From assembly GCA_947259415.1 (NCBI GenBank), contig CAMYMI010000008.1, positions 4,368 through 68,367 of the forward strand: a stretch of DNA of 64,000 nt, in the 5' to 3' direction. This DNA is from an uncultured Ectothiorhodospiraceae bacterium (lineage in GTDB: Bacteria; Pseudomonadota; Gammaproteobacteria; UBA9214). The notes under the pieces were generated by a model, which was not told the origin of the DNA, did no database searches, and worked only from the letters and a program-made list of their open reading frames with translations. Both the position numbers and the translations under genes were made by a program. Shown one piece after another: positions 957 to 63,512 of the stretch. How positions within the stretch are numbered: the first letter of the stretch is position 1; each line of letters begins with the position of its first letter.

Positions 957-1144
957 CGCTCATTCTCCCGGCTATCCGTTCCGATGAACGTTCATGACCA
1001 CAACAAAAGCTGTATAAAACACGCCTGCCGTCATGCCCTGTCCCTGATTTAAGTATAGATACGATTGGGGGGGCACAGGGGGTTGGATCAATGCCTGGCC
1101 GAATTGCACATGGAAAGATCCGCTCCTTGTGCAAATATATAAGT

Positions 1145-39868: not shown

Positions 39869-39890
39869 ATTTTTATGCCATGCTCAAACT

Positions 39891-41861: not shown

Positions 41862-42136
41862 TCCCGTAGGTCGGATTAGCGAAGCGTAATCCGACGATGT
41901 CTGTAGGAGCGGTCCCCCGACCGCGATACCCGACACAAACAATCGCGCCGCAGGACGGCGCTCCTGCAGAAACAACCTGACTGTGTGGGAGCGGCGTCCT
42001 GGCCGCGATCGGTTATTAATAAAAGGAATTAAAACAAGGTTTCTGACACCTTGTTATTCCACTACAAATCCCCGTGATACCATCACCCCAACCACCAGAA
42101 CCCATAACCAGAAGCACCCAACCAACACAAACACCC

Positions 42137-42496
42137 GTGCAATCACTCGACCAGATTAAAACCCGCCTGCGCGACTTCGCCAATGAGCGCGATTGGGACC
42201 AGTTCCACTCCCCGAAAAACCTCGCCATGGCGCTGATCGTCGAGGCCGCCGAACTGGTCGAACATTTCCAGTGGCTGACCGAGGACCAGAGCCAGGCCCT
42301 GCCGCCCGACAAGCTCGCCGAGGTGGAACAGGAAATCGCCGACATCCAGATCTACCTCATCCGCCTGGCCGACAAGCTCGGCATCGACCTGGCGCAGGCC
42401 GTCAACGCCAAGATCGAACTGAACGAGAAGAAGTACCCGGCTGAAAAGGTGCGCGGCAGCGCGGCGAAGTACACCGAGTTCAACAACGGTGGCTAA
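42137..42496 (+). CDS. MazG-like nucleotide pyrophosphohydrolase (dCTPase/DCTPP1-like)
   Basis: F..ERDWDQFHSPKNLAMAL.VEAAEL.E.FQW, EIAD..IYL.RLAD.LGID, K...N..KYP. Confidence 0.9.
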   Translation: MQSLDQIKTRLRDFANERDWDQFHSPKNLAMALIVEAAELVEHFQWLTEDQSQALPPDKLAEVEQEIADIQIYLIRLADKLGIDLAQAVNAKIELNEKKYPAEKVRGSAAKYTEFNNGG

Positions 42497-42702
42497 GTGG
42501 AAAGTGTAGGAGCGTCCCGTTTATGCCCGGCGCTCAATCGGGTACGTGCGCGATTGTTTACAGACCGTAGGTCGGGTTAGGCCGTAGGCCGTAACCCGAC
42601 GAAGGTTACGTCGGATTACGCTGACGCTAATCCGACCTGCGTGCTGCAATGAAGCGGAATTGAGTACACTGTCCCCGGAATTGTAAACAAGAGGAACACC
42701 CC

Positions 42703-43908
42703 ATGATCCGCTTGCGCGAACTCGGCCCGGGCATCGTCATCGCCGCCACCGGCCTGGGGGCCGGCGACCTCATCGCGGCCTCGGTGGCCGGTGCGAAATA
42801 CGGTGTCGCCATCCTCTGGGCGGCCGTCCTCGGGGCGCTCCTCAAGTTCACCCTCAACGAGGGCCTGGCGCGCTGGCAGCTGGCCACGGGGACCACCCTG
42901 CTCGAGGGCTGGGTGCGGCGCCTGCCGCGCTTCTGGTCGGTGTACTTCTTCGTCTACCTGCTGCTGTGGAGCTTCATCGTCGCCGGTGCCCTGATGTCAG
43001 CCACGGGACTCGCGATCCATGCCCTGGTGCCCGCCATCAGCGTGGAAGCGGGTGGTGCCGTGCAATCCCTCATTGCCGCCGCCCTGGTGCTGCTGGGTCG
43101 CTACCGCCTGCTCGAGGTCATGATGAAGTTCTTCATCGCCCTGATGTTCGCGGTGGTGATCTATTGCGCCGTGGCCCTGCAGCCCGACTGGGGCGCCGTG
43201 CTCACGGGCATCGTCGTACCACAGTTGCCCGAGGGCTCGGTGTTCTTCCTGCTGGGGGTCATGGGCGGGGTGGGCGGCAGCGTGACCCTGCTGAGCTACG
43301 GTTACTGGATCCGCGAACGCGGCTGGCGCGGCCCGGAACGCCTGCGCCAGGTACGCATCGACCTGCTGGTGGCCTACGTACTCACCGGCCTGTTCGGCAT
43401 CGCCATCATGATCATCTCCGCCGGCGTCTCACCCGAGGTCCTGTCCGGCAGCAAGATGGTGCTGGCCGTGGCCGACGAGATGGGCGCCACCGTGGGCGAC
43501 ATCGGCCGCGGGGCCTTCCTGGTCGGGTTCTGGGGCGCGGTGTTCAGCTCCATGCTGGGCGTCTGGCAGGGCGTGCCCTACCTGTTCGCCGACTTCGTGC
43601 ACGAATGGCGCGGCAACACCGACGACAAGGTGATCGACACCCGCGCCAAACCCTACCGCGCCTACCTGGCCTTCCTCGCCATCCCGCCCATGATCCTGCT
43701 CTGGGCCGGCAAACCCGTGTGGGTGGTGCTCATCTACGCCGTCGCCGGCGCCGCCTTCATGCCCCTGCTGGCGGGCCTGCTGCTGTACATGAACGGCCTG
43801 CGCGACTGGCTGGGCCCATTGCGCAACCGCAGTCTGGGTAACCTCGCCTTGTTGGCGACCCTGGTCCTGTTCACGGTGTTGCTGGTGAATAAATTGTTGA
43901 GTATGTAG
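42703..43908 (+). CDS. Nramp-family divalent metal transporter-like protein
   Basis: LGPGIVIAATGLGAGD, GAKYG..ILWA, EGLARWQLATG.T. About 11 TM segments. Confidence 0.82.
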   Translation: MIRLRELGPGIVIAATGLGAGDLIAASVAGAKYGVAILWAAVLGALLKFTLNEGLARWQLATGTTLLEGWVRRLPRFWSVYFFVYLLLWSFIVAGALMSATGLAIHALVPAISVEAGGAVQSLIAAALVLLGRYRLLEVMMKFFIALMFAVVIYCAVALQPDWGAVLTGIVVPQLPEGSVFFLLGVMGGVGGSVTLLSYGYWIRERGWRGPERLRQVRIDLLVAYVLTGLFGIAIMIISAGVSPEVLSGSKMVLAVADEMGATVGDIGRGAFLVGFWGAVFSSMLGVWQGVPYLFADFVHEWRGNTDDKVIDTRAKPYRAYLAFLAIPPMILLWAGKPVWVVLIYAVAGAAFMPLLAGLLLYMNGLRDWLGPLRNRSLGNLALLATLVLFTVLLVNKLLSM

Positions 43909-44245
43909 CCCGGATGCAGGCCGACAGGCCGTAATCCGGGGAAGCTGGGCATCGTATTCCCGGATTCCATTGAATTTCATCCGGGCTACCGGTTAGTGGT
44001 CACACAGTAGGTCGGGTTAGGCCGCGAGGCCGTAACCCGACAAAGGTTATGTCGGATTACGCTGGCGCTAATCCGACCTACACGTCTGTTTCACATAATT
44101 CCTTCTCCCCTCCAAGGGCAGAAGGCGACGACTGCGATGAGGGGTAGGCAACGCAGTTGCTTGGCTACAGGATTGATCAACCCTCACCCTGGCCCTCTCC
44201 CACTCATGGGAGAGGGGATTCAACAATGTAGCCCGGATGCAGGCC
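43905..44245. repeat. REP doublets and boxC-like hairpins
   Basis: GTAGCCCGGATG...CATCCGGGCTAC overlapping the stop codon, a GTAGGTCGGGTTAGG doublet and CTCCC/GGGAG hairpins. Confidence 0.8.
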
Positions 44246-45480: not shown

Positions 45481-45786
45481 CTACGCCGCATCCTCATCCA
45501 CCTGGACCGCAATCTTCAACCCCAGCGCGTGCAGCAGCCGGTCCAGGCTTTTCAACTCGGGATTCCCCTTGCCGGACAACATCCGGTACAGACTTTCCCG
45601 GTTAAGCCCGGTGGCCTCGGCCAGCTTGCTCATGCCGCCAAGACGCGCCTCGGCCACATTGCGCAGGGCAATCAGAAAGAGTTCCTTGTCGCCTTCTTCG
45701 ATGGCGGTGTTCAGATAAAACGCGGCTTCTTCCGGATCGGCAAAGGCTTCTTTGAGGTGTTCAGAGTATGGTCGATAGGGTTTCAT
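45481..45786 (-). CDS. Putative addiction-module antidote (HI1420-like XRE antitoxin), orphan
   Basis: YL..A.EEGD...FL.AL..VA.A..GMS.LA..TGL.RESLY..LS..GNP....L..L..ALG. Confidence 0.88.
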   Translation of the reverse strand: MKPYRPYSEHLKEAFADPEEAAFYLNTAIEEGDKELFLIALRNVAEARLGGMSKLAEATGLNRESLYRMLSGKGNPELKSLDRLLHALGLKIAVQVDEDAA

Positions 45787-46638: not shown

Positions 46639-47079
46639 GCGAAATAGCATAGCGAAGAATGAAAAGGTCCGAGTAACCTTTTTTTCAATGCACCACAAAT
46701 ATTACGCAGTAGGAGCGGTCCCTGGCCCCGATGGATTTGTAGGTGAACCCAGCCGTCCCGATGGTTCGCTGTAGGAGCGCTCCGTTTATGCCCGGCGACT
46801 AATCGGATGCCGCCGCGAAAAAATGCAGATCCCCTCTCCCTCCGGGACACCTACAGGGATGTAGGTGGTAGAGCAACGCAGGACGCAGTTACCGAGAGGG
46901 TTAGGGAGAGGGGATAAAAGAAAACAATTTCCCAAACAACCTCGCAGGAACATCTCACGGGCCCAAAACCACTAACCCACCGCTCCTAATACTCCATACT
47001 CCCCCACAAATCACCGTGTTACCATGCCCCTAATCCATCAGAACCTGAAACACAAAATACCCAATAATTTCAAACTATT

Positions 47080-47489
47080 GTGCAATCCCTGAACCAAATA
47101 AAAACCCGCCAGCGCGACTTCGCCGCCGCACGCGACGGGGACCAGTTCCACTCCCCGAAAAACCTCGCCATGGCCATGATCGTCGAGGCCGCCGAACTGA
47201 TCGAACACTTTGATGTGCAGGGACGCACGAATGCCGCGGGAGGCAGGATGTCGGGAGCGGCCCAGTGGCTCACAGAGGACCAGAGCCAGGCCTGCCACCC
47301 GACAAACTCGCCGAGATGGAACAGGACATCGCCGACATCCAGATCTACCTCATCCGCCTGGCCGACAAACTCGGCATCGACATGGAGCGGGCCGTCAACG
47401 CCAAGATGGAACTGAACGAGAAGAAGTATCCGGCGGAGAAGGTCAGGGGCAGGGCGGAGAAGTACAATGAATGTAATGATGGGTGCTAG
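47080..47489 (+). pseudogene. Disrupted second copy of the MazG-like pyrophosphatase
   Basis: Aligns with 42137-42496 but has a 51-bp insertion (47211-47261), a 1-bp deletion near 47291 causing a frameshift, and RDW>RDG. Confidence 0.88.
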
Positions 47490-47644: not shown

Positions 47645-47689
47645 CTCTGGGTAGAATCTGTGAAAGAATTTCCAAAAATCTACCCAGAG
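47645..47689. promoter_or_regulatory. 11-bp inverted repeat upstream of the methyltransferase, probable autoregulatory operator
   Basis: CTCTGGGTAGA (47645-47655) ... TCTACCCAGAG (47679-47689), abutting the RBS. Confidence 0.6.
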
Positions 47690-47698
47690 AGGAAACTG

Positions 47699-48946
47699 AT
47701 GGAACAGCTAAATGAGGCCGCCCGTGATGCACTTACTGTTGCCCTATCACGATATCCAAAGACTCAACTAGCTGAAGAATTATCAATCACAACCAAAACC
47801 CTGGATAGCTGGCTCAACAAGAACATCCCGAGTCCCGGTCTGGTTTATCACGCTGTCCATGGTTTTCTTGAATCCCGGAAGCGCATTGCAGGAAAAAGTG
47901 ACGCTCCCTTCAAGTTTATCGATCTATTCGCGGGTATCGGCGGGATTCGTCTTGGCTTCGAGGCGCACGGTGGTAAATGCCTCTTTACCAGTGAATGGGA
48001 CAAGTTCTCTATTCAGACCTACCGAGAGAATTTCAAGGAAGATGAGCATGCGATTCACGGTGACATAAGAGAAATCACAATAGATTCTGACAGAATCAGA
48101 GAAATGATTCCGGATCATGATGTCTTGCTTGCAGGATTTCCCTGTCAGCCTTTTTCAATTGCCGGTGTGTCAAAAAAGAATTCCCTTGGCAGGGCGCATG
48201 GCTTTGAATGCAAGACTCAAGGGACACTGTTCTATGAAATTGCAAAGATTATTGATGAAAAACAGCCGGGTGCTTTCCTGCTCGAGAATGTCAAAAACCT
48301 GAAGAGCCATGACAAGGGCAGGACTTACCAGACTATCCTTGACGTCCTGCGCAATGATCTTGGTTACTACGTACCCGAGCCCAGAGTAATAGATGGCAAG
48401 CATTTTGTGCCGCAGCACCGGGAAAGACTCATAATTGCCGGTTTCCGCAGGCCAGTAGCATTTGACTGGAATGATCTTGAGCTGCCAGATCTGGATTCTG
48501 CGCCAAGGCTGGGATCAATATTTCAGCAGGAAAGTGAAGTCGACAAGAAATATATTCTGACCAAAAATCTCTGGGACTATCTCCAAAACTATGCGCGCAA
48601 GCACAAGGCGAAGGGGAATGGTTTTGGTTTCGGCAAGGTTGGTCCCGATGATGTCGCCAGAACCCTCTCAGCTAGATACTACAAGGATGGTTCCGAGATA
48701 CTGGTCAAGAGAGGAAAGACCGGTAACGCAAGGCCAAGGCGCTTAACCCCGAGGGAATGCGCAAGACTGATGGGGTTTCCTGATTCCTTCGATATTCCGG
48801 TCTCGGACACCCAGGCCTACAAGCAGTTTGGTAACTCTGTAGTTGTTCCAGTGATTGAAGAGGTTGCCAGGATCATGTATCCGCACATCATGATACTCAA
48901 GCAGGAACAGGAGCTTGGCGAAGACCAGTACGCAATGGTTGTCTGA
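47699..48946 (+). CDS. dcm: DNA (cytosine-5) methyltransferase, Dcm/M.EcoRII-like, with N-terminal HTH
   Basis: [54 protein letters not shown]-terminal [18 protein letters not shown] helix-turn-helix. Confidence 0.95.
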
Positions 48947-49422
48947 TGGTTGATGTAGTTGATCCGGTGACCCGCAGCCGGATGATGTCCGGCATCCGTA
49001 GTAAAAATACAAGACCCGAGATTCTGATACGAAAAGGCCTGCATGCCAGGGGCTTTCGCTTTCGCCTGCATGACAAACGCCTCCCCGGAAAGCCGGATAT
49101 GGTTTTTCCAAAGTACGGCGCCGTAATCTTTATTCATGGCTGTTTTTGGCACGGCCATGACTGCCATTTGTTCAAGTTGCCGAAAACCCGCCGTGCTTTC
49201 TGGCATAAAAAGATTTCTCGTAATCAGGAAAAGGATGCGGAAAGTTATGCCAGTCTGAGAAAAGAAGGATGGTACATACTGACTATATGGGAGTGCGCCC
49301 TGAAGGGCAGAACGAGACGTCCTTTGGGGGAGGTTTTGGACTTGGTGGCCGACTGGCTTGTATATGAGTTACGTAATCGACAGATCAGTGGCATAAAGCG
49401 CAGGAATGTACAGCAGAAATGA
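48946..49422 (+). CDS. vsr: Very short patch repair endonuclease
   Basis: RSRMMS.IRSKNTRPE, LPGKPD, FIHGCFWHGH, IWEC. Confidence 0.95.
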   Translation: MVDVVDPVTRSRMMSGIRSKNTRPEILIRKGLHARGFRFRLHDKRLPGKPDMVFPKYGAVIFIHGCFWHGHDCHLFKLPKTRRAFWHKKISRNQEKDAESYASLRKEGWYILTIWECALKGRTRRPLGEVLDLVADWLVYELRNRQISGIKRRNVQQK

Positions 49423-50642
49423 AAAGGGGATTTCTATCAGAATATTTCGAGGGCGTAGCAGTCAAGCGCCTGAGTGCTGTCGAAGCAGACCCGGTGTCTT
49501 CAAACCAGCACGAGTTCAATGGTGTTGGCTCCATGAGGAAAATGCTCGGATCCGGGCGCCAGACATTTACCGCCCGGTTCGCCTATCTGGGCGAGGACGA
49601 GGACGATACCTCCTCTGCAGAGGGTTTCCTGACGTGGTATGACGCGCGTGAAGCACATCCGACCAGATCCGAATACCGCCTGTATTTCCCTTCCACTGCT
49701 GTGTCGGAACGTGCAGCGGAAGGCGATCTCATGGTTATCGGCAAACGTCAGGATGGTACTCTCCAGGTAATTATCGCCATGGCTGGCAGTACAGCCGAGA
49801 ACCAGTTGAGTTGGCTGTTTGGTGTACCGGTACAGATTGAGACAAGATTTGAGATTCGCGCATTCAAGGATGACACTGATGTTGAGGTGAATTTTGCTGC
49901 AAGATTCATCCTCGAGGAGCTGGGAGTAGAAATTGAAGAAGCTGATACGGACAGGCTGAACGGCCTGATTGAAAAATTCCACGGAGTGTTTCCGAGTACG
50001 GCAATCTTTTCTGCGTATGCGCGCGACACCTTGCCGGAGGTTGATCCCCGGGAAGATCCGGATGCGGCGCTACTGGCCTGGATGGAACAAGAGGAGAAAC
50101 TGTTTCGGAGACTTGAAAACCAGATTGTGTCCGAGCGCCTTAAGCAGGGATTCAGGGTAGAAGACAGTGCAGATGTGGATGCTTTTATCAGTTATTCGCT
50201 CAGTGTGCAGAACAGACGCAAGTCGCGTGCTGGTTATGCACTGGAACATCACCTTGATGAAATTTTCCGGGAAAATAATGTGCAATATGCACGCCAGGCT
50301 GTTACAGAAAACAACGCAAAACCGGATTTTCTTTTTCCGGGGGAAGCCGAGTATCACGATGAAAATTATTCGCCTGACAAGCTGTCAATGCTGGGTGTGA
50401 AGACCACCTGCAAGGATCGGTGGCGGCAGGTATTATCTGAGGCGAAAAGGATAAAACAAAAACATCTGTTTACTCTGGAGCCTGCCATCAGTGCTAACCA
50501 GACGTCCGAGATGGATGCACATCATGTCCGTCTGGTACTGCCTGCAGGGCTGCACAGCACCTACTCTGCGGAACAGCAAGGGAAGCTGTCTGATTTGCAG
50601 TACTTTATTGGCGTTGTGAAGGAGCGCCAGAGTCTCGTGTGA
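49419..50642 (+). CDS. Type II restriction endonuclease, EcoRII-like
   Basis: N-terminal KRLS.VE...SNQHE and R.EYRL. C-terminal NRRKSRAG..LE.H, KPDFLFPG, KTTCKDRWRQV..EA (EcoRII-C motifs). Confidence 0.88.
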   Translation: MKRGFLSEYFEGVAVKRLSAVEADPVSSNQHEFNGVGSMRKMLGSGRQTFTARFAYLGEDEDDTSSAEGFLTWYDAREAHPTRSEYRLYFPSTAVSERAAEGDLMVIGKRQDGTLQVIIAMAGSTAENQLSWLFGVPVQIETRFEIRAFKDDTDVEVNFAARFILEELGVEIEEADTDRLNGLIEKFHGVFPSTAIFSAYARDTLPEVDPREDPDAALLAWMEQEEKLFRRLENQIVSERLKQGFRVEDSADVDAFISYSLSVQNRRKSRAGYALEHHLDEIFRENNVQYARQAVTENNAKPDFLFPGEAEYHDENYSPDKLSMLGVKTTCKDRWRQVLSEAKRIKQKHLFTLEPAISANQTSEMDAHHVRLVLPAGLHSTYSAEQQGKLSDLQYFIGVVKERQSLV

Positions 50643-50671
50643 GCCTGTTTCCTTTCAGACTGATGAGTGCT

Positions 50672-51400
50672 TCATGGGCCTGGTTGCCCTGAAAGAAAGC
50701 TGCTGTACTCCACAGGCAACATATTAATGATCTCGTCCCGTGGCAGGGTATACAGGTCGTAGGTCAATTCCAGCTGCTGTAAATAACTTATAAAGCGCCG
50801 GATGTTACCTTTCCTTTTCTGGGAAGTAGAACCGACCTTGAACGTGTTCCGCGCAGGATCACTGTAAAGCCGGCTGGCTGTCTCGATAATTCCCTTGCAG
50901 CCAATAAAGAACTGGCGTGCGGCAATCTGTTCCAGTAATTCACCACGCTCATTCGGACCCTTGCTGAGTAGAAAATGTGCAGTATTGCCGTATTCGCTTA
51001 CCAGCTGCCAGGTTGTTCTGAGCGCGTGCCTTGGCCTGTGGTTGTAGTTCGGGCTGAGGATGTAGTTATACGGTTTGCTGGGCTTGCGGGTGCCATCAGT
51101 CCTTGCCGGGCAGAGCTGGTTAAACCATAACAGCGCAAGCCAGCTCCACAGGCCTGTATCCGAGATAATGTCCTGGTGATTGATGTCGTGAAACAGCTGT
51201 TCAAGATATTCTCCCATTTCATACCGGGTCGCGAAGGTTTTATCCTCAACTTCGATGGTGAATTCCACAGGCTCCGACCAGTCATCATCGCTCAGTATCG
51301 CAATGGGTGGATCACTTTTCTCGCCACCAGCTATCCGGCCGATGTAATCCTGAAAAAACTTCATTCCGCGCTCATTGAGTCTTCTGATTCGGGTACTCAT
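50672..51400 (-). CDS. Hypothetical protein (fourth gene of the GHKL operon)
   Basis: 242 aa, ATGA-coupled to the upstream gene, contains GLWSWLAL..F.QLC. No family recognised. Confidence 0.8.
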   Translation of the reverse strand: MSTRIRRLNERGMKFFQDYIGRIAGGEKSDPPIAILSDDDWSEPVEFTIEVEDKTFATRYEMGEYLEQLFHDINHQDIISDTGLWSWLALLWFNQLCPARTDGTRKPSKPYNYILSPNYNHRPRHALRTTWQLVSEYGNTAHFLLSKGPNERGELLEQIAARQFFIGCKGIIETASRLYSDPARNTFKVGSTSQKRKGNIRRFISYLQQLELTYDLYTLPRDEIINMLPVEYSSFLSGQPGP

Positions 51401-52164
51401 AGTCCGGCGTCCTCCATACGTGTCACCAGCAACTCGCACAGTTCATGTCGTCTGCAGAATTCTGTGACCACACCATCAATCCAGTCATTCAGTTCGAAAG
51501 GATCGGCCGAGTCCGGCTTGTCTTCAGGCGAGATGAAGCTTGCAAAATCGATCCATGGCTTGTGCCAGGAATCCTCGTCAGCATCTTCCTCGGCTATATT
51601 CAGGAAGATAAACAGCAATGTCTCGCGCAGGGCAGCAGGCAGTATCAGGCCCTGGAAGAGCGGGTTATTCATCAGCTGCCCCTTGGCTTCAGGGATGCGG
51701 TTATTGATACAGAGAACGGGCTTGCTGTCCGGTATGAAGCTCATTTTCCAGGTCAGATCACCGAGGTCCGTACTCTTGAACGTCATCAACGATGCGCGAC
51801 TTTCCTCTTCCTCGTCTTCTTTGGGTCGCAGACGTTCTGCACTTGCTACCAGCCTGCCGATTCTTTCGGACTTGTCGACCACCTTGACCCGGAACAGGAT
51901 CGGACCTGACAGATCAAGCTGGTCCAGGGTTCGGTCCTCAGGCGGAATCGGTGATCCGGCTGTTCCGAAATGAAAGCGTTGTGAAGTGTTCTTGTGATAA
52001 GCCTCGACATACAGTGCAGCATCTGCAGACAGCTTGCTCGAATCCAGTCTGAAGCTTGCATCAAAGGAGGGCGGGGCATGCGGGTGCTCGTTCAGGGTGA
52101 TCTGTACTTCTGTGCGCTTGATCTTTTTACGCCCGGTATGATTGATATGTCTGGAAGTCTTCAT
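51397..52164 (-). CDS. Hypothetical protein (third gene of the GHKL operon)
   Basis: 255 aa, ATGA-coupled on both sides, beta-rich N-terminal half. No family recognised. Confidence 0.8.
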   Translation of the reverse strand: MKTSRHINHTGRKKIKRTEVQITLNEHPHAPPSFDASFRLDSSKLSADAALYVEAYHKNTSQRFHFGTAGSPIPPEDRTLDQLDLSGPILFRVKVVDKSERIGRLVASAERLRPKEDEEEESRASLMTFKSTDLGDLTWKMSFIPDSKPVLCINNRIPEAKGQLMNNPLFQGLILPAALRETLLFIFLNIAEEDADEDSWHKPWIDFASFISPEDKPDSADPFELNDWIDGVVTEFCRRHELCELLVTRMEDAGL

Positions 52165-54014
52165 TCGCTCGCCTCCAGTGTCTGCAGATCGACCTTGAGA
52201 TCACGGTTGTGATCAAATCCGGTCACCTCGATACGGAAATCAGGCTCATTGATATTAAACTCAAGGATGTTCGCCTTCCGGTCCACCAGCATGGCCTTTG
52301 GTGAATCGGTACGAATGGATAACTCGCCCGTTCGATTGAAGTCAAAATCAAAGGGATTGTATTTCTTGAACGGATTGCCAGACATAATGTCGTAGGCAAC
52401 GCGCACCCGGCACCGAACCGGATACAGATCTGGGCTGGCATCATTACCCGGCAATACTGCAAACCCGCCCTTGATGGGTGTAATTCTGGCAGGTTTCAGC
52501 TTGGGCTCCGGTATCGGAGGAATATCCGGCGGTGTCTTTCCTCTCCTGCCTTTCTTGTGAGGCTGGTCCGGCAGTTCCGTCCAGAAAAACTCCATCAGCG
52601 CCTGTTCATCCTCTTCCTCGATGGATTGAGCGAGCAAGTCATAAAGGTTGACCACCGAGTTGCGGATGACCTTCAGCTTTGGCTGCGGATTGACATAATT
52701 TTTGCGCAGCTTCTCTGCCTGGGTGTTCCAGCGGGTATGGGCGGCATTTTCGGCATCGCCCAGGAAGGCTGCGATGGGCTCTTCTTCCGCAATCATGGCG
52801 CCAAGTGCCTTACGCTCCCGGAACTTGGCTTCTCCCGGCAGAGTCAGTCCGCCGCGGACATACATATCGTGGCCTTTCGTGAGTTCCTCGGGGCGTTTCA
52901 CATAAACCGAGAAACCAGACTCAATAACTTCCTTGTTCTTGCGTTTGATCGTAAGGGGCAGATACACGCCCACCATTTCCTTGTTTGCAAACCGTTCTCG
53001 CAGATTTTCCAGGTCTTCCGGCTCGATGTCATCCTCATCGAGCTTGCTGTCATCTGCCCAGCTCTTCTTGAGAATGAGCAGATCGGATTCCGGTGTATTG
53101 TTCATCTCGCCAATAAAGTCAAACAACTGGTCAATGTCAGATATCTTGCCGGTGGCGTACCGATTGGCGAGCTCGCGGATATTGCCGGAATTGATTTCGA
53201 TATCATCAAAGTTCAGTACCAGCTGACCGGTAATGATTGGGTAGAAGTAGTTGACGATACCGACGGCAATCATGTTTTCGAGATCCAGTTCCGGGTTCGG
53301 AAACGGGACAGCGATGGAGAGCCCGGTCTGGTCACGTCTTTCCAGGCCAAAGTTATTGCAGAACGCAGCGGTAACATCACCGCCCCGCACCGGAACCTGG
53401 ATCTGGTTGTTCGGATCCTCGCCTGCCAGCTCGGAAAAGAAAGCGTGTGCCGGATATTCGACGCCACCATATTTGTGGAATCCTAGTACGGTCTGTCCCA
53501 TCAGGTACGGGTCAGGGTCTCCAGACCGGACAGTCACGCCAAAAAAGGAACTCAACAGCGAAGAGCTGGAATAAACAAGCTTACCAAGTCCCCAGCGCCC
53601 CCGGCTGCGACCGGTCTTGTGGGAACGGCCATGGCGCCGCCAGAAGTCAGTGAAATTGTCATCATCCTTTTGCTCGACAGAGCCGGTCAGTCCGCGGGTG
53701 CCGAAGTCCTCAATGATCAGAGCGGAGGGGTTGTTAAAGTCAAGCTCGTTGAGTTCAATCCCGGCCGAGGCGGCATGTTCAAGATGACCCTCGAAAAGTT
53801 GTCGCATATAACCGTTGTGTAACCCGCTGCAGCCATTGACCCAGCGAAATTTAACCCGGACCTGGTCTTCACCTATAGCGGCATCAAGCGAATTCTGGAC
53901 CGCTTCCCGCACAATGGTATCGGAGAGGTCAACCTCGTCATTGCGGAACTGATCCCGCTGGGTAACCTCGGTTTCAACCAGATTCTGTGGTTGGGGGACA
54001 AAATGCCATTTCAT
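52161..54014 (-). CDS. GHKL (HATPase/MORC-like) ATPase domain protein
   Basis: Bergerat motifs REAVQNSLDA (I), IEDFGTRGL (II), GRWGLGK (III), TGLSI (IV). AAGGA RBS. Confidence 0.8.
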   Translation of the reverse strand: MKWHFVPQPQNLVETEVTQRDQFRNDEVDLSDTIVREAVQNSLDAAIGEDQVRVKFRWVNGCSGLHNGYMRQLFEGHLEHAASAGIELNELDFNNPSALIIEDFGTRGLTGSVEQKDDDNFTDFWRRHGRSHKTGRSRGRWGLGKLVYSSSSLLSSFFGVTVRSGDPDPYLMGQTVLGFHKYGGVEYPAHAFFSELAGEDPNNQIQVPVRGGDVTAAFCNNFGLERRDQTGLSIAVPFPNPELDLENMIAVGIVNYFYPIITGQLVLNFDDIEINSGNIRELANRYATGKISDIDQLFDFIGEMNNTPESDLLILKKSWADDSKLDEDDIEPEDLENLRERFANKEMVGVYLPLTIKRKNKEVIESGFSVYVKRPEELTKGHDMYVRGGLTLPGEAKFRERKALGAMIAEEEPIAAFLGDAENAAHTRWNTQAEKLRKNYVNPQPKLKVIRNSVVNLYDLLAQSIEEEDEQALMEFFWTELPDQPHKKGRRGKTPPDIPPIPEPKLKPARITPIKGGFAVLPGNDASPDLYPVRCRVRVAYDIMSGNPFKKYNPFDFDFNRTGELSIRTDSPKAMLVDRKANILEFNINEPDFRIEVTGFDHNRDLKVDLQTLEASE

Positions 54015-54043
54015 TGATCAGATTCCTTCTATCTGTTTCCGTA

Positions 54044-54271
54044 TCAGTCGAGTGTGAAGGAGGGGTTATCCGTACCTTTACCGTTTTCAAAGCGCGCACG
54101 TGCGCTCTTCAGCTCACGTTCTAGTGTCCTAAAAATCTTGTTCACATCCTCGTCGGTGTAGGAGTAGTTACTCCTGTTCGAGAGGTTGCCGATCAGGCGC
54201 AGGGTTTTGATTGCGTTGTTGACCCGTTTTTCCGCCAGACGCACAAAATTATCCCGGCTGGATTCACTCAT
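54044..54271 (-). CDS. Small helical hypothetical protein (first gene of the GHKL operon)
   Basis: 75 aa, F.RLAEKRVN.....LRLIGNLSN..NY.YT.EDV.KIF. Co-oriented 30 bp upstream of the GHKL gene. Confidence 0.8.
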   Translation of the reverse strand: MSESSRDNFVRLAEKRVNNAIKTLRLIGNLSNRSNYSYTDEDVNKIFRTLERELKSARARFENGKGTDNPSFTLD

Positions 54272-54641: not shown

Positions 54642-54887
54642 GAACTGGTCGAACACTTCCAGTGGCTGACCGAAGAACAGAGCCATACTCTGCCACCCGA
54701 CAAACTCGCCGAGGTGGAACAGGAAATCGCCGATATCCAGATCTACCTCATCCGCATGGCTGACAAACTCGGCATCGACATGGAGCGGGCCGTCAATGCC
54801 AAGATGGAACTGAACGAGAAGAAGTATCCGGCCGTGAAGGTCAGGGGCAGGGCGGAGAAGTACAATGAATGTAATGATGGGTGCTAA
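54642..54887 (+). pseudogene. 5'-truncated third copy of the MazG-like pyrophosphatase
   Basis: ELVEHFQWLTEEQS...KYNECNDGC*, nearly identical to the 3' half of 47080-47489 but without the insertion or frameshift. No start codon. Confidence 0.88.
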
Positions 54888-54974: not shown

Positions 54975-56810
54975 CTAAGCTGGTCCTGCAACGCGATGAA
55001 CCCCGGCCGGCGCGAGAAGGCTCTCTATCCAGGCGACTGGGCCTCCTCGGTTGGTGCAGAGCGTAAAAAATGCCCGTTGTTCTGCTCGTGTAAAAGCGAC
55101 AAAAAATGAATTGAGTTCTTCAATTCTATTGGGTGTCAGGCTCCACCATGTCTGGTTATCAAGCCCGTAGAAAATCATCGTATGAAACTCAAGTCCCTTG
55201 CTCTTGTGAATGGTCATCAGAGCAACTTGATCAAGTCCTTCAAACTGATCGATAGCATCCGCCCAGCTTGCTGCATCATCTGCAGTTTCAGCGAGAAGAT
55301 CGGCGAACCCTGTCCACACCCGGTCAAAATCCTGCTGGCGCCGGTACCCCGGGAAGGCCCGTCTCAAAATGGAAGTACCGATAAAATCAAGCGCACGTCT
55401 CGCAATTGTCCGTGCTGCGTCATTATCTGGTTCAAGGGTATTCATTTCAGTGCGCAGTTCGCGAATAAATGTCTGTAAACGCTGCTGCAAACGCTGCTGG
55501 CCTACCTCATCGTGAGGATAGATCCCTTCAAGAAATTGCAGGTTTCGCTGCGCGCTGTTCCATGAAATGGGATTCTTAATGGTCGCACCAAGCCGAAGAA
55601 GGGGAAGAAGAATCGCTGTCAGCTCTTCGCCTAAAAGATCCTGAATAGCAATGTTACCAATATTTCGCGCAACATTGCGCAGTTTCACATCATGCTGAGT
55701 CAGGGATGCTGCGAGTACCTGTTCCACATCATTGGCATGCATGCGAACGAGTATCGCGATTTCATGCGGGTCAATACCGTTGTCAATTTCTCCGGCGATC
55801 CATGCGGCGAGGCCATCCGCTTCATTTTCATTGCTTTCATATTGCCAGATCGCTGCGACATCGCCGTCCACATTGCGGTCAGCACGTGCCTCCGCTTGCT
55901 CGGCCTGCGGGTCGATACGCTTCGCTATAACGTGTTGGATGCGGACTAGATCCTCGTGCGATCGCCAGTTCGATACAAGCGGAATTCGTCTTGCATCGAA
56001 ATCGGCTTCAAATCGTGCGAATGCATCGGGCATTGCGCCAGCCCAACCCATGATGCGCTGCTTGTCATCACCCACGGCAGTAAAGATCGCGCTGCTGCCA
56101 TCAAAGGCGGTGTGAAGGAGATCGAACTGCGCGTAGGTCGTGTCCTGGAATTCATCGAGAAAGACGAATGGATAAGTTGCCTGTAGAGCGCGGCGAATAT
56201 CGGGATTCTCGCGCAGCAGCCAGTCCACTAGACGATTGATCATGGGAAAGGACAGAAATACCTCGTCTTTTTCGGTGTACTGCGCGTGCCAGTAGGCCCG
56301 TAATGCGTTTTCCACTCCATCAGCTAGCGGGAGACGGGTGCGTGCAACATTCCGCTCTAGTGTGGCTATATTTACGCCGTGGTAGTTGTGGCTGGTCAGG
56401 AAATGCTGTAACTGCTGCCGAGTGGGGAAATCGATCCTATAGTTTGGCGGTGGCGAAAAAGGCGCGGGAATTGCTGCCCGGAAACGATCAACGAAGCCCT
56501 TTGTAAACGCATCAAAGGTCATCGAATCAAAGCGGCCCGCCTGCTCGGGCGGGCATCGCTTTTCAACACGCTCGGCGAGATTCCGTGCTGCGTCCCGCTT
56601 GAAACTAATGGCAAGGATCCGCTTCGGGGCTGGGCATATCCCAGTCTGCAGAAGATAGGTTCCCTTCTGAGCAAGGAACTCTGTCTTGCCGGCCCCGGCA
56701 CCGGCCGTCACGCAGACGCTGCGACCGTTCTCCTGTAGCGCTTCCCAGGCGCGCGGCTCAAGGTCGTCAACGCCCTGCGGTCGCCACGAATCTGGCGGCA
56801 CAAGTTTCAT
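54975..56810 (-). CDS. UvrD/Rep-family SF1 helicase (GajB-like)
   Basis: AGAGAGKT, DEFQD, VGDDKQRI, NWRS, MTIHKSKGLEF, VAFTRA. ATGA-coupled to the OLD nuclease. Confidence 0.9.
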   Translation of the reverse strand: MKLVPPDSWRPQGVDDLEPRAWEALQENGRSVCVTAGAGAGKTEFLAQKGTYLLQTGICPAPKRILAISFKRDAARNLAERVEKRCPPEQAGRFDSMTFDAFTKGFVDRFRAAIPAPFSPPPNYRIDFPTRQQLQHFLTSHNYHGVNIATLERNVARTRLPLADGVENALRAYWHAQYTEKDEVFLSFPMINRLVDWLLRENPDIRRALQATYPFVFLDEFQDTTYAQFDLLHTAFDGSSAIFTAVGDDKQRIMGWAGAMPDAFARFEADFDARRIPLVSNWRSHEDLVRIQHVIAKRIDPQAEQAEARADRNVDGDVAAIWQYESNENEADGLAAWIAGEIDNGIDPHEIAILVRMHANDVEQVLAASLTQHDVKLRNVARNIGNIAIQDLLGEELTAILLPLLRLGATIKNPISWNSAQRNLQFLEGIYPHDEVGQQRLQQRLQTFIRELRTEMNTLEPDNDAARTIARRALDFIGTSILRRAFPGYRRQQDFDRVWTGFADLLAETADDAASWADAIDQFEGLDQVALMTIHKSKGLEFHTMIFYGLDNQTWWSLTPNRIEELNSFFVAFTRAEQRAFFTLCTNRGGPVAWIESLLAPAGVHRVAGPA

Positions 56811-58798
56811 TCGTCATCATCCCCAAAGCCAAGTACATTTTTAACATGTTCGATGAGAGATTTCAGGGATGCAGGCGAATCCTCTAAAAGCTGCTTATCA
56901 AGTATGCGTGCGAGTGCGGCAAGATGGGTTTCTGGTTTGCTGCGGTGAAGAAACAGATAGGGATACCATCTGAAGACTTCATCATAGTCGCCACCGTAGA
57001 GCTTCGGGTCGCCGCTGGTTTTCAATGTGGCTGCCTTGGCACTTTCAAGAGCTTTGGCGGTGCTGCGAGGTCCATAACCACCCGGATTGGGATGCATGTA
57101 GGCGCCCGGGAATGCTTCGAGCATCGCAAAATCAAGGTCAAGCGGATCGGACAAGAACACCCCTTCATCCTCGAGCGCCTGCACCCAGTGATTTTGCTCG
57201 TAATCCAGCCAGAGGTCATCGTCCTCGAGATCATCGATCGCATCAGGATCGATATCGTCGAGGACGGCCTTGATGTTGTTGCTGAGATCGACGCCGATTA
57301 CAGTCAGGTTCTCGGCAACGCTGCGAATGATCCCAGCACCGCCGTGCGCGCGGCCGATATCAAAATCGAGCAGCGTCGCATATGGGATTTTCAGGTCGGA
57401 CAGTAACGTCCAAAAATGTGTGCAATACCGCCCACCTAGGGGGACGATCGGCACAAAGGACGGATCGAGCGATATCCCCATAGCTTCGGCGATCCGCGGT
57501 ATGACTAGCTGCTCTGAGTCGCCTTCTGCAAGTATGACAAATCGTGCGAAATACAATTCCGGATAGGCCCTGACTGCGAGCCGCACATATTGGCTGGCCT
57601 CTGCATCGCTCATCGGGAGCATCAACTTGCGCACGGATGACTGCCTGCGCTCGCGGTCCAGCCGAAAATACCGAACCTCCTCCGGTTCGATGCGGCTGAG
57701 GATTGCTGCAGAATGGCTCGACAATACAACCTGTGCTGTATCGAGCGCACCAATGTCGCGCGCCTGCATAATAATGCGCGATAAAAAGAAGGGCGAGAGA
57801 CTGTTCTCCGGTTCTTCTATAGCCAGGAGCGTGAGGTGCGCCCTGCGCAGCTTTTCCTGGTCGAACGCGCTTTCATCGGGCGGTAGGGCAAAAGCATCTC
57901 GCTCGACTTCGAGGGTCGCGGCTGTCAGGGCAATGTGAAAGAGCGAGCGCTGCCCGTCGCTTAATTCTGAAAGTGCTCGCTCCTGTCCGGCCTCATCGGG
58001 ATAGAACGCAAAGTCCGCCTTGCGGACAAATTCTTCAAATCGGCGTTCTACCAGGCGTAAAATCGGTGTCGTATCGGTATCGGCCTCATGCACTTGTTTC
58101 CATCGTGCCTCGAGTCTTTCCAATACAAACTTGGCCGGATCCTCATCCTGAAACGTCTCCTGGATTTGTCTTGCGGTGTCCGCGGTAGTCTGCCGGAATT
58201 CTTCCGACCATTTTGCGGCCTGCCATAGACGCCCCTTGAGAAGGGACGTCACCTGTTCATCCACATTACGCGTGGCGGGAATATAGACAAGTTGTATCGT
58301 CCCACGCTCGACAGCCGGCACCTTCTGGCAGTCGTCATCCCAGTCGTAATCGTCGTCAAGCGCCCTGACCCAGCGAATATCCTCATCAACGCTGCCGCTC
58401 GGCGTACCATCATCGGTCCAGGTCGCCTTGAGCATGATTCTTACTTTCAGCGGCGCGCCGGGTTCGGAGGCGGCCATTTGCAGGAAGAACTCAGGCACGG
58501 CATCGCCCACAGCGTCACCCTCGAAACCTTCGAGTTCCGGGAAACAAAGGACGACATCAATAAGTAAATTCGCCCCTGATTGAAGCTCCTGCTGGTCGAG
58601 AGACAGATGAAAGTCGCGCTGGCGAATCGTGCGTTGGGCAGGCGTGACGCCGAATAAACGCGAGAGTCCCTGAAGCAGCGCGGTTTTTCCCGCGCCGTTC
58701 CCGCCGACAAGGGCAGTGACGCTGTCTTCAATAGCAATTGTCGTTGCTTCCGGGCCAAAGCACCTGAACCCTTTCAAGGACACGCTTTCTATCTTCAT
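56807..58798 (-). CDS. OLD-family ATP-dependent nuclease (ABC ATPase + Toprim, GajA-like)
   Basis: GFRCFG, GGNGAGKT, LSDGQ, AIEEPE, SSHS, Toprim ILAEGDSE and DFD. Confidence 0.9.
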   Translation of the reverse strand: MKIESVSLKGFRCFGPEATTIAIEDSVTALVGGNGAGKTALLQGLSRLFGVTPAQRTIRQRDFHLSLDQQELQSGANLLIDVVLCFPELEGFEGDAVGDAVPEFFLQMAASEPGAPLKVRIMLKATWTDDGTPSGSVDEDIRWVRALDDDYDWDDDCQKVPAVERGTIQLVYIPATRNVDEQVTSLLKGRLWQAAKWSEEFRQTTADTARQIQETFQDEDPAKFVLERLEARWKQVHEADTDTTPILRLVERRFEEFVRKADFAFYPDEAGQERALSELSDGQRSLFHIALTAATLEVERDAFALPPDESAFDQEKLRRAHLTLLAIEEPENSLSPFFLSRIIMQARDIGALDTAQVVLSSHSAAILSRIEPEEVRYFRLDRERRQSSVRKLMLPMSDAEASQYVRLAVRAYPELYFARFVILAEGDSEQLVIPRIAEAMGISLDPSFVPIVPLGGRYCTHFWTLLSDLKIPYATLLDFDIGRAHGGAGIIRSVAENLTVIGVDLSNNIKAVLDDIDPDAIDDLEDDDLWLDYEQNHWVQALEDEGVFLSDPLDLDFAMLEAFPGAYMHPNPGGYGPRSTAKALESAKAATLKTSGDPKLYGGDYDEVFRWYPYLFLHRSKPETHLAALARILDKQLLEDSPASLKSLIEHVKNVLGFGDDDE

Positions 58799-59037
58799 GG
58801 CCGTAACCGCCTGCCTTGAAAAGTTGCCAACATTCCTTTTTTCATGCCAAGCTGCCAATCGGAGGTGTGGAGTAAACGAACTTTATCGCTTGTTTGCATC
58901 CCAGATTCTCCTAACGATCAATCAGGGGTCGAGGAGGCACAATATACCCGTGTAGAATGCGGGGATCACCTTTTTTGAAGAATGTATCCGGCCGCTTTAG
59001 TTGATTCCACGCTGGGTGCAACCGGGAGGATTTCACC

Positions 59038-59470: not shown

Positions 59471-59619
59471 CGAATTAGGGGACAGTATACTTATATCGCT
59501 GCAATGACAGGTTTTTCGTTATCAGAGAGCATTTTCTTAATCGGGCCCATATCCGGATTTGTGTACTGTTTGATACAAGTTCATGAATTGTCTGTGCGAC
59601 TTTCAGAGGGGTTATCCGG
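59471..59619 (+). repeat. 149-bp direct repeat, copy 1
   Basis: Matches 60766-60914 with 3 mismatches by eye. Begins CGAATTAGGGGACAGTATAC. Confidence 0.9.
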
Positions 59620-59690
59620 CGGATTCAAGGGGTCAGAGTACTTGAATAAAATTTCTAGTACTCCGACCCCTTGAATTCCAGTTGCACCGG

Positions 59691-60765: not shown

Positions 60766-60914
60766 CGAATTAGGGGACAGTATACTTATATCGCTGCAAT
60801 GACAGGTTTTTCGTTATCAGAGGGCATTTTCTTAATCGGGCCCATATCCGGATTTGTGTACCGTTTGATACAAGTTCATGAATTGTCTGTGCGACTTTCA
60901 GAGGGATTATCCGG
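60766..60914 (+). repeat. 149-bp direct repeat, copy 2
   Basis: See 59471-59619. Confidence 0.9.
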
Positions 60915-60935
60915 TGGGCTGCGCCGGACTCCGGT

Positions 60936-62679: not shown

Positions 62680-63429
62680 ATGTCCAAGTACTACAAGGGA
62701 AAACGTACGCGCAATCTCTACGTGCCGGGGGGTGAAAAACCGTTCAAGCTGTCCCGCTCGAAGCTCGAGCTGTTCATGAACTGCCCGCGCTGCTTCTACC
62801 TGGACCGGCGGCTGGGTGTTGGTCAGCCGCCCGGTTTCCCCTTCAACCTGAACTCGGCCGTTGATGCCTTGCTCAAGAAGGAGTTCGATGACTACCGGGC
62901 CAGGCAAGAGCCACACCCCCTGATGATTACAAACGAAATTGATGCCGTTCCGTATGCCCATGAGTCACTGGATAAGTGGCGAGAGAACTTCAAGGGAGTT
63001 GCTACTCATCACAGGGAGACTAACTTGCGCGTTTCTGGTGCCGTTGATGATCTCTGGGTCAACCCGGCGGGTGAGGTGATCGTGGTTGACTACAAGGCCA
63101 CCAGCAAGAATGGCGAGATCAACCTCGATGCAGACTGGCAGGATGGCTATAAGCGCCAGATGGAGATCTACCAGTGGCTGGTGCGACGCCAGGGCCTGGC
63201 CGTATCCGACACCGGTTATTTCGTCTACTGCAACGGCCGACGCGACAGGGATGCCTTCGATGGCAGGCTGGAGTTCTATATCCATGTAATTCCCTATACG
63301 GGGAATGATGGCTGGGTAGAGGACTGTATCAGGGCTGCGCATGAATGCCTTGTGGATGACATGATTCCGGAATCGAGTTCTGATTGTGATTACTGCAGGT
63401 ATCGCAAAGCGGTACAGGAAGTGAAATAG
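62680..63429 (+). CDS. PD-(D/E)XK nuclease family protein (RecB/AddB-like, stand-alone)
   Basis: LSRSKL....CPRCFY, GAVDD, VVDYK, Q..IY, C-terminal CDYC. GAGGG RBS. Confidence 0.88.
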   Translation: MSKYYKGKRTRNLYVPGGEKPFKLSRSKLELFMNCPRCFYLDRRLGVGQPPGFPFNLNSAVDALLKKEFDDYRARQEPHPLMITNEIDAVPYAHESLDKWRENFKGVATHHRETNLRVSGAVDDLWVNPAGEVIVVDYKATSKNGEINLDADWQDGYKRQMEIYQWLVRRQGLAVSDTGYFVYCNGRRDRDAFDGRLEFYIHVIPYTGNDGWVEDCIRAAHECLVDDMIPESSSDCDYCRYRKAVQEVK

Positions 63430-63461: not shown

Positions 63462-63512
63462 AAGGGGTCAGAGTACTTGAATAAAATTTCTAGTACTCTG
63501 ACCCCTTGAATT
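63462..63512. repeat. 51-bp GGGGTCAGAGTAC hairpin, direct repeat of 59627-59677
   Basis: AAGGGGTCAGAGTACTTGAATAAAATTTCTAGTACTC(T/C)GACCCCTTGAATT, one mismatch between copies. Confidence 0.85.

Follow-up and report, generated by a model that had tools for sequence, protein, structure and literature searches.

What does an operon encoding a GHKL-type ATPase do when it lies tail to tail with a restriction–modification (R-M) locus? The question is raised by a stretch of 64,000 nucleotides from an uncultured Ectothiorhodospiraceae bacterium (GenBank assembly GCA_947259415.1, contig CAMYMI010000008.1, positions 4,368–68,367 of the forward strand), hereafter called the window, in which four minus-strand open reading frames (ORFs), g1, g2, g3 and g4, span positions 50672–54271 in the ORF listing of the window (Table 1). 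Genes for a Dcm-type C5 cytosine methyltransferase, a Vsr endonuclease and an EcoRII-type restriction endonuclease, all on the plus strand, converge on g4. An original prediction, made from the DNA letters alone, had described four genes for proteins of 75, 617, 255 and 242 residues, the last three coupled through ATGA overlaps, as an uncharacterised defence system or an accessory complex of the R-M genes. All four genes were found on the minus strand with these sizes, and the coupling is borne out by 4-nt overlaps at both the g2/g3 and the g3/g4 junctions. The reading that we tentatively favour, and would place somewhat short of probable, is that g1–g4 encode a paraMORC-type GHKL ATPase DNA-clamp complex that works with restriction based on 5-methylcytosine (5mC) and forms a divergent branch of PDC-M33, a candidate system catalogued in PADLOC.

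A conserved three-gene core

The g2 family is large and spans many bacterial phyla and some archaea, with a function that is at present putative; among 8000 candidates scored, relatives at E ≤ 0.001 fall into at least 1417 clusters (at 90% identity), and every name shown for them is 'hypothetical protein'. Gene neighbourhoods were sampled with two peptide patterns, taking one genome per species, which yielded at least 600 stretches and 485 confirmed relatives, of which the best 80 were examined; all locus proportions given below refer to these best 80 of at least 485 relatives and to crude ORF calls. Searches by tblastn with the window proteins placed g2, g3 and g4 next to one another on one strand in 77 of the 80 loci; the exceptions are L016, a contig of only 1 kb, L074, where the contig ends, and L056, in which g2 is truncated. 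The junctions are mostly 4-nt overlaps or gaps of a few nucleotides, and the pairwise distances of the three proteins correlate with r = 0.93–0.94 across 35 systems (34 loci and the window). The loci extend over more than 10 phyla and come from Pseudomonadota, Verrucomicrobiota, Planctomycetota, Lentisphaerota, Actinomycetota, Acidobacteriota, Nitrospinota, Nitrospirota, Myxococcota and Thermodesulfobacteriota, as well as from an archaeal metagenome-assembled genome. The small gene g1, on the other hand, was found in only seven of the 77 trio loci, to which iterated hidden Markov model searches of the upstream ORFs added none. The conserved core is therefore g2–g3–g4, passed on jointly as a compact cassette in many phyla, with g1 as an accessory; conserved co-occurrence thus holds for the last three of the four genes, and for the first in a minority of loci only. 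In phages, the sole tblastn match of g2 is partial (24% identity) and lies in an unannotated 6-kb record, and a megablast search of E. coli genomes and plasmids with the operon gave no match.

The gene boundaries in the window agree with this tight organization. An ATG start within the 4-nt overlap of g2 and g3 must read ATGA, and the ATG of g4 at 51400 overlaps the stop codon of g3 in the same way. A GTG-started frame from 51439 would extend g4 to 255 residues; the 242-residue form is preferred because of the ATGA overlap with g3 and because the homologues in the family alignment start at the methionine encoded by ATG 51400. The spacer of 29 nt between g1 and g2 contains a ribosome-binding-like site, AAGGAA.

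The g2 protein as a predicted GHKL ATPase

All four Bergerat motifs, which the original prediction had reported in g2, are present in order and conserved: E37xxxN41xxD44, D103xG105xxG108, G139xxG142xG144-K145 and G173-x-T175. Motif II reads DxGxxG, as opposed to the canonical DxGxG, a form that only 15 of 188 family members have at any position. The complete set is found in order in 158 of these 188 sequences, and each single motif in 163–188 of them. In an alignment of 43 diverse homologues sharing 28–55% identity with the window protein, E37, N41, D44, D103, G108, G139, G142, G144 and G173 are invariant and G105 is nearly so.

An AlphaFold2 model of g2 with the family alignment as input (predicted local distance difference test, pLDDT, 86.9; predicted template-modelling score, pTM, 0.73) displays an ATPase fold followed by a transducer/S5-like middle domain, a disordered linker at about residues 464–494 (segments 464–471 and 478–494 having pLDDT values below 50) and a C-terminal β-domain of a kind not recognised at about residues 509–613. 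A Foldseek search of the PDB with this model returned 208 matches at E ≤ 0.001. Topo VI-B chains occupy ranks 1–11 (E 1.3e-9 to 1.8e-8, probability 1.00), followed by ParE/GyrB ATPase fragments, Hsp90/TRAP1/GRP94 and the N-terminal domain of MutL (rank 21), and among the matches listed every one is a GHL ATPase. Template-modelling scores stay at only about 0.3, which is what a protein of several domains, free to vary in their relative angles, should give. At the level of its predicted structure, g2 has a GHKL ATP-binding fold and a transducer domain, and the earlier assignment as a GHKL ATPase is backed by both the conserved motifs and the modelled fold. With Topo VI-B, MutL, Hsp90 and GyrB it would share this ATPase and transducer fold (Foldseek probability 1.00, E 1e-9 to 1e-6) and the order of the nucleotide-binding motifs, but it is only 8–14% identical to them, with no sequence-level match, and differs from the classical GHL ATPases in its motif II and in its C-terminal β-domain.

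Sequence searches with g2 or its family profiles found nothing in Pfam, NCBIfam, PHROGs or the PDB (the last by phmmer and hmmsearch). None of 43 family members matches any HATPase model (HATPase_c and HATPase_c_3 included) at E ≤ 1, and an hhalign comparison of the family with one HATPase_c_3 protein, from locus L003, was negative. Beyond the transducer sheet, E422 and H426 form an ExxxH motif that is invariant in the 43 members, and the wider pattern AE[ND]xxH[ST]xW is present in 182 of the 188 sequences; no nuclease domain was found in g2. A query of the ESM Atlas with a g2 homologue returned only its own family and actinobacterial forms. These actinobacterial relatives have about 666–704 residues in the Atlas and belong to clusters in which 15–86% of the members carry HTH_3 or HTH_31, which suggests that fused DNA-binding forms of the g2-type ATPase exist in actinobacteria.

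The partner proteins

The g1 protein is predicted to form two helices, with an invariant NLSNxxNY loop between them, and matches no Pfam, NCBIfam or PDB entry and neither a helix-turn-helix (HTH) nor any other family; its own family comprises 333 clusters, all unnamed or 'hypothetical'. Weak matches of g1 to ZacA (PADLOC, E 0.004), Cas11a (PADLOC, E 0.005) and PHROG 640 (E 0.005) were taken as chance.

In g3, the N-terminal residues N8-x-T10 are invariant and G11 and R12 nearly so (NxTGR), E54, R63 and G67 are invariant, and the C-terminal half is acidic. It has no sequence match in Pfam, NCBIfam, PHROGs, PADLOC or the PDB. Its profile identifies 2220 representative clusters (50% identity) at E ≤ 0.001, and among the 150 clusters listed almost all are standalone proteins of about 255 residues.

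The model of g4, mostly helical, is of high confidence (pLDDT 96.0, pTM 0.90), and Foldseek gave no match to it at E ≤ 0.001 either in the PDB (best E 0.61, probability 0.04–0.08) or in the viral library BFVD. Nor did g4 match any sequence in Pfam, NCBIfam, PHROGs or the PDB, and a query of the ESM Atlas with a g4 homologue returned nothing above 0.85. The invariant residues of g4 include H125, Y179, R202, Q209 and E231, with R124 nearly invariant, and do not fit a recognised nuclease signature; the earlier remark that no nuclease motif is evident thus stands for g2 and g4. As far as our searches reach, a confidently predicted fold with neither solved nor viral relatives is new, and it makes g4 a good target for structural work.

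No fused forms of g3 or g4 were found, although the failure to find longer forms counts only weakly for g4, and an apparent g3–g4 fusion in L050 was rejected, the two genes being in different frames. The Pfam scan gave no Toprim or Spo11 family match for g3 or g4. In this respect the operon would differ from Topo VI: no partner of the Topo VI-A/Spo11 type was recognised, g4 being without a known fold and g3 having been judged by sequence only.

Relation to the candidate system PDC-M33

The original prediction could match the layout to no named system, a statement that no longer stands, since the gene order is that of PDC-M33, although this is a distant candidate. The PDC-x entries are presented in the pertinent part of PMC11811056 as 'unpublished candidate systems' of PADLOC's authors. 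PDC-M33 is represented in PADLOC-DB v2.0.0 by models for three genes, A, B and C, the last being DUF6339. The g2 protein matches PDC-M33A at E 1.5e-19, a partial match of residues 31–480 to positions 31–429 of the 627-position profile and the only library match of the operon. The corresponding operon of an Arthrobacter plasmid matches PDC-M33A, B and C at E 3.5e-82, 6.4e-30 and 1e-31, with its C protein matching Pfam DUF6339 at 3.9e-34, and the match of the window g2 is much weaker than that of this true member. Neither g3 nor 40 members of its family match the PDC-M33B model, and neither g4 nor 42 members of its family match the PDC-M33C and DUF6339 models, so that PADLOC would not call the window operon.

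Comparisons by hhalign reach further. The g2 family aligns with the Arthrobacter A protein over 386 columns (probability 99.1%, E 1e-18), and the g4 family gives a moderate match to five DUF6339 proteins over 163 collinear columns (probability 59.7%, E 8.9e-5) in which a D-x-x-LW-x-x-L motif and an RH motif line up; the comparison of the g3 family with six PDC-M33B-type proteins was not significant (probability 4.4%, E 0.009).

Seven plasmid loci were considered; tblastn with g2 gave five distant relatives on plasmids, and tblastn with one of their downstream proteins gave more. The PDC-M33 layout, seen in Arthrobacter agilis (L082), Paenarthrobacter (L084), Deinococcus (L085), Priestia (L086), Planococcus (L087) and, with no small gene annotated or detected, Halorussus (L081), consists of a gene for 62–77 residues followed by genes for about 620–645 residues, about 282–356 residues and, for the protein annotated as 'DUF6339 family protein', about 252 residues. 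Of the Paenarthrobacter DUF6339 gene only a truncated piece is present, and in Deinococcus the annotated genes are shorter. The Rhizobium plasmid (L083) carries g2, g3 and g4 of the window type at 23–29% identity. Besides its A–B–C operon, the Halorussus plasmid has a second, divergent gene resembling g2 and PDC-M33A upstream of dcm (339–1790, minus strand in the locus).

The window operon and PDC-M33 share the order small gene–A–B–C, similar sizes (A about 620 residues, B about 255–295, C about 245–260) and, on plasmids, neighbourhoods with dcm, vsr and type II endonucleases; they differ in that the PADLOC models of PDC-M33 include no gene for g1. In the plasmid relatives this small gene is the best-conserved part: g1 is 44–56% identical to the small proteins of five plasmids from Actinomycetota, Deinococcota and Bacillota (E 5e-14 to 7e-22), whereas the A proteins share only about 24–32% over partial alignments. 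Judged by these sequence comparisons, the window operon would be, distantly, a divergent branch of this catalogued, unpublished candidate. Since Pfam and NCBIfam, and PADLOC for two of the three core genes, see nothing, such operons are labelled 'hypothetical' and left out of defence censuses. Within the searches made here, what is new is a large branch, so divergent that no model recognises its B-like and C-like genes, together with the support at the level of predicted structure for the A protein as a GHKL ATPase.

Link to cytosine-methylation genes

A C5 methylase lies in the fetched flanks of 30 of the 77 trio loci and a Vsr gene in those of 27, so that 31 loci have either and 26 have both. 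The nearest of these genes is separated from the module by a median of 313 bp, and the next-commonest neighbour clusters are found in at most six loci each. An EcoRII-type endonuclease is nearby in eight of the 77 loci and an MvaI/BcnI-family endonuclease takes its place in six; 17 of the 31 methylase/Vsr loci have neither. The 31 linked loci represent 23 distinct arrangements. Locus L015 repeats the order of the window exactly (g1>g2>g3>g4>ecoRII<vsr<dcm<); in L002 the module lies between vsr and ecoRII with all genes on one strand (dcm>vsr>g2>g3>g4>ecoRII>), and L005, L011 and L020 share the order dcm>vsr>g2>g3>g4. With respect to the window Dcm, the linked methylases form at least two identity groups (about 48–75% and about 24–41%). 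In a g2 tree of 63 rows, the clade of the window bears the 5mC label in 18 of 19 rows, and the basal branches of the other clade are mostly labelled as well.

Within the half of the family to which the window operon belongs, the cassette remains beside a C5 methyltransferase, in most cases together with Vsr and frequently also with a type II endonuclease, while gene order and orientation keep changing. The link to methylase and Vsr persists in about 40% of the sampled loci and in the distant PDC-M33 branch: all seven plasmid loci have a C5 methylase, accompanied by EcoRII-type endonucleases in L082 (by Pfam) and L084 (by tblastn) and by endonucleases annotated as MutH/Sau3AI in L086 and AlwI in L087. 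Linkage with C5 methyltransferases, which the original prediction had singled out for checking, is strong in both sets of loci.

One alternative starts from the frequency of Vsr next to the module: the cassette could be an accessory of mobile cytosine methylases in which g2 would act as a MutL-like partner, loading or stimulating the Vsr nickase at T:G mismatches, and an incoming methylase would then not raise the rate of C-to-T mutation caused by deamination of 5mC. Vsr directly abuts g4 or g2 in many of its 27 loci, and the window Vsr scores above the curated TIGR00632 cut-off for true Vsr (97.85 bits), yet methylases without Vsr accompany the module in L006, L034, L035 and L076 and on plasmids L081, L083, L084 and L086, and both genes are missing from over half of the loci. 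The N-terminal domain of MutL is among the structural matches of g2, and a functional interaction between E. coli MutL and Vsr is cited in PMC2292703, but the best structural matches are Topo VI-B chains, no MutS-like mismatch sensor is present and the neighbourhoods resemble defence islands more than repair loci. We regard a repair accessory as improbable.

The distribution of g1 invites a further explanation, namely that the operon is a maintenance or control device of a mobile R-M unit, concerned, for example, with post-segregational killing or with the timing of restriction versus methylation after transfer, and not an anti-phage effector. A small, highly conserved upstream gene that occurs only in methylase-linked loci (all seven g1-bearing loci in the sample also have dcm or vsr, and five of the seven plasmid loci carry the gene) would suit a controller, except that known R-M controllers are HTH proteins and g1 matches no HTH family. 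The presence of members on plasmids and of flanking repeats in the window is consistent with a mobile unit; a 617-residue ATPase with two partners is, however, a heavy apparatus for regulation, and the core persists where there is no R-M neighbour. This explanation is very improbable in our judgement. Whatever its role, the recognition that forms linked to a methylase have in g1 a conserved fourth component is new so far as our searches extend.

Comparison with known GHKL systems

The association of GHKL ATPases with Dcm, Vsr and EcoRII is not a new theme, since it was set out for MORC and paraMORC proteins in 2008 (Iyer, Abhiman and Aravind; PMC2292703). The sections of that paper on these families describe MORC and paraMORC1–5 GHKL genes together with cytosine methylases, Vsr and EcoRII-like nucleases, and propose a looping role for the proteins. 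As portrayed there, the paraMORC families resemble g2 in combining a GHKL with an S5-type domain, in their sporadic, laterally mobile distribution and in their cytosine methylase, Vsr-superfamily and EcoRII-like neighbours; paraMORC2 also has an ExxxH motif, corresponding to E422 and H426 of g2, an agreement of motif only. On the other hand, the paper stresses SFII helicase partners in these passages, whereas none is conserved beside g2, and the same sections do not describe partners such as g1, g3 and g4. They also give paraMORC2 as mainly cyanobacterial and Gram-positive, in contrast to the mainly proteobacterial g2 branch. MORC proper differs further in its GHKL domain of the HATPase_c_3 type, a model matched by none of the 43 g2 members.

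C5 methylases are likewise the neighbours of a two-gene GHKL system, HEF_HK/Response_reg_2 (Bellieny-Rabelo et al., 2021; PMC8011034). According to the parts of that paper concerned, it resembles the window operon as a GHKL module adjoining DNA_methylase and Vsr genes and differs in having HATPase_c_3 and HATPase_c domains that Pfam recognises. In locus L003 (3663–7196) a protein with HATPase_c_3 and HATPase_c domains, together with a 459-residue neighbour without a Pfam match, sits between a Dcm–Vsr–EcoRII unit and g2–g4, placing two different GHKL modules beside one methylase. This pair resembles the HEF_HK/RR-like pair by domain content, its 459-residue partner being named from position only, and since its genes are separate from the adjacent g2–g4 the HEF_HK-type pair is a separate system.

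Phenotypes have been reported for other anti-phage proteins with GHKL domains, Tiamat (bioRxiv 10.64898/2026.09.30.754977) and the GHKL-Shedu protein VcSduA (PMC12137116). The portions of these reports consulted describe, as in the window, a GHKL ATPase in a defence context with methylases and nucleases in the neighbourhood; they concern single proteins with a fused PD-(D/E)xK nuclease, unlike g2 with its two or three separate partners. The PADLOC models for Tiamat and Shedu give no match to g2.

A possible mode of action

In MutL, Topo VI-B, Hsp90 and MORC, ATP drives a dimerisation by which DNA is clamped or looped and partner proteins are reorganised. By analogy, g2 would dimerise on binding ATP and, as do MutL, Topo VI-B and MORC, clamp or loop DNA, with g3 and g4 serving as its adaptor or effector subunits; g1 would be a regulator, or a small subunit, peculiar to the forms linked to a methylase. 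The branch represented in the window would then be an ATP-dependent add-on to 5mC-based restriction, in which Dcm-marked DNA would be spared and unmarked invading DNA would be bound and handed to a nuclease; this could be the endonuclease encoded next door, or g3 or g4 could have such an activity in unrecognised form. Reading or exploiting 5mC has been attributed to eukaryotic MORCs, and the linkage of the module to cytosine methylases of more than one kind raises the question of whether a bacterial GHKL clamp does so as well. A bolder possibility, which we consider clearly unlikely, is an epigenetic surveillance machine, a prokaryotic counterpart of the MORC proteins that act on methylated DNA in eukaryotes, in which a GHKL clamp would use the adjacent methyltransferase or its 5mC mark to tell self from non-self, g4/DUF6339 or g3 would be a DNA or 5mC reader or a nuclease of a kind not described before, and g1 would be the switch.

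Several observations weigh against a clamp that cooperates with 5mC-based restriction. The ATPase assignment of g2 rests on motifs and predicted structure, as no sequence profile recognises the protein. Among the papers searched, none mentions 'PDC-M33' or 'DUF6339', and none with a phenotype of, or an experiment on, any family member was found. The operon yielded no nuclease, the fold of g4 is without a known counterpart, and a type II R-M system, where complete, needs no helper. Given the different methylase groups and endonuclease types, a sensor of a single methylated site cannot explain all of the associations. Moreover, the fetched flanks of 46 of the 77 loci contain neither a C5 methylase nor a Vsr gene, so the core must be able to work without a linked methylase; the proposed tie to R-M thus holds as linkage but not as a dependence of the core on linked R-M genes. 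On the g2 tree, a derived clade of 30 rows and a clade of four Acidobacteriota rows have no 5mC label, and the label requires four changes compared with about 20.5 in shuffles. As related rows share labels, this does not show repeated gain, and much of the association could be inherited.

These same figures accord with a different explanation, in which the cassette is an autonomous three-gene defence or conflict module whose action is unrelated to methylation, and its adjacency to methylases reflects the gathering of genes in islands and inheritance in blocks. The many loci with neither Dcm nor Vsr nearby and the small number of label changes would follow readily, and the highly varied conflict genes around the module point the same way. 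A Pfam scan of 139 flanking proteins and six long ones identified McrBC, Mrr, type I and type III R subunits, Eco57I, PLD-SNF2, AbiE, PIN, NERD, and Z1 with DUF4420; the Arthrobacter plasmid locus also has Shedu and a HEPN protein. Ordinary metabolic genes occur among the neighbours too. The defence neighbourhood expected originally is evident as a richness in restriction, abortive-infection and toxin–antitoxin genes, as judged from the listed genes, and from this island location, the conflict-gene neighbours and the candidate status in PADLOC we infer a defence role for the operon family. In the window itself Gabija adjoins the operon, and the bounding repeats are typical of accretion at a hotspot. 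An autonomous module would, however, leave unexplained why 31 linked loci with 23 gene orders keep so short a distance from the methylase or Vsr gene, why methylase and Vsr share a transcription unit with the module in several loci (in L002 even with the module between vsr and ecoRII), why the link recurs with different endonucleases in all seven plasmid loci, including the very distant PDC-M33-type branch, and why no other neighbour family is as frequent. We consider an autonomous module to be on the unlikely side, though well worth keeping in view; if the operon is only a neighbour of R-M genes, it is one more unvalidated candidate, with a clear three-gene minimal unit. Whatever probability remains beyond the proposed cooperation with 5mC-based restriction and the repair, control and autonomous alternatives is left for something else.

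The island around the operon

Features of the window are collected in Table 1.

Table 1. Positions of the operon genes and of the principal features around them in the window.
Feature	Positions	Strand	Description
g1	54044–54271	−	75 residues, small protein
g2	52161–54014	−	617 residues, predicted GHKL (Bergerat-fold) ATPase
g3	51397–52164	−	255 residues, partner protein
g4	50672–51400	−	242 residues counted from ATG, mostly α-helical (predicted)
Dcm-type C5 cytosine DNA methyltransferase	47660–48946	+	PF00145, E 1.8e-83; PADLOC MTase_II
Vsr very-short-patch repair endonuclease	48946–49422	+	PF03852, E 5.4e-33; TIGR00632, 147 bits
EcoRII-C type II restriction endonuclease	49419–50642	+	PF09019, E 1.8e-69
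GajB (Gabija)	54975–56810	−	PADLOC, E 2.1e-216
GajA (Gabija)	56807–58858	−	PADLOC, E 2.6e-235
Left direct repeat	47244–47489	+	Repeat family D1; PF12643; 3' part of degenerate MazG-like gene
Right direct repeat	54642–54887	+	Repeat family D1; 3' fragment of MazG-like gene (alignment)
Intact MazG-like gene copy	42074–42496		140 residues

The closeness of the operon end to the restriction gene is as first described, but the distance is 29 nt (50643–50671) and not 30 bp; this gap shows no unusual folding (z = −1.32), and scans for promoters and terminators gave no more sites than in shuffled sequences. The match of the EcoRII endonuclease covers its C-terminal catalytic domain only (residues 229–397). 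As the N-terminal 170–220 residues match no family at E ≤ 0.01, an effector-binding domain, if present, would be divergent. On the other side of the operon, a complete Gabija pair lies directly upstream of g1 on the same strand.

The GC content is about 0.50 across 47.5–60 kb, compared with 0.62–0.71 in the upstream flank (40000–44000). The direct repeats said to bound an island were confirmed; they derive from a MazG-like gene and bracket the R-M genes and the operon together. Of the three copies of this gene, the first is intact, the second (47035–47489) is broken by an insertion of about 51 nt and the third is a 246-nt 3' fragment that begins near the interruption point of the second. The copies split the island into a part with transporters, toxin–antitoxin genes and a methyltransferase, a part with the R-M genes and the operon, and a part with Gabija, as if cassettes had been added successively at the MazG-like gene. 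A MazG-like gene is also found directly upstream of g2 in loci L066 and L067. No tRNA genes were found in the window.

Other repeats occur to either side. Between 42505 and 46922 lie short intergenic repeat families (D4, D6, D9, D11, D14 and D15; 51–55 nt, 76–94% alike), several of them spaced by about 1.4 kb between single genes, which could be repetitive extragenic palindromic (REP)-like elements or cassette-boundary sites. At the right end of the low-GC island, a 152-nt repeat (59471–59622 and 60766–60917, 97% alike) and a 51-nt repeat with a palindromic inverted-repeat core (59627–59677 and 63462–63512, 98% alike) may be small mobile or boundary elements. Just to the left of the first MazG-like copy, a plus-strand gene (39798–41861) encodes a protein of 687 residues in which a CLP1-type P-loop (PF16575) and a metallo-β-lactamase-fold domain (PF12706) occur together. 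An addiction-module antidote-type HTH protein (PF21716/HTH_3; 45481–45786, minus strand) and a PD-(D/E)XK protein (PDDEXK_1; 62680–63429, plus strand) likewise point to a region that is mobile or rich in defence genes.

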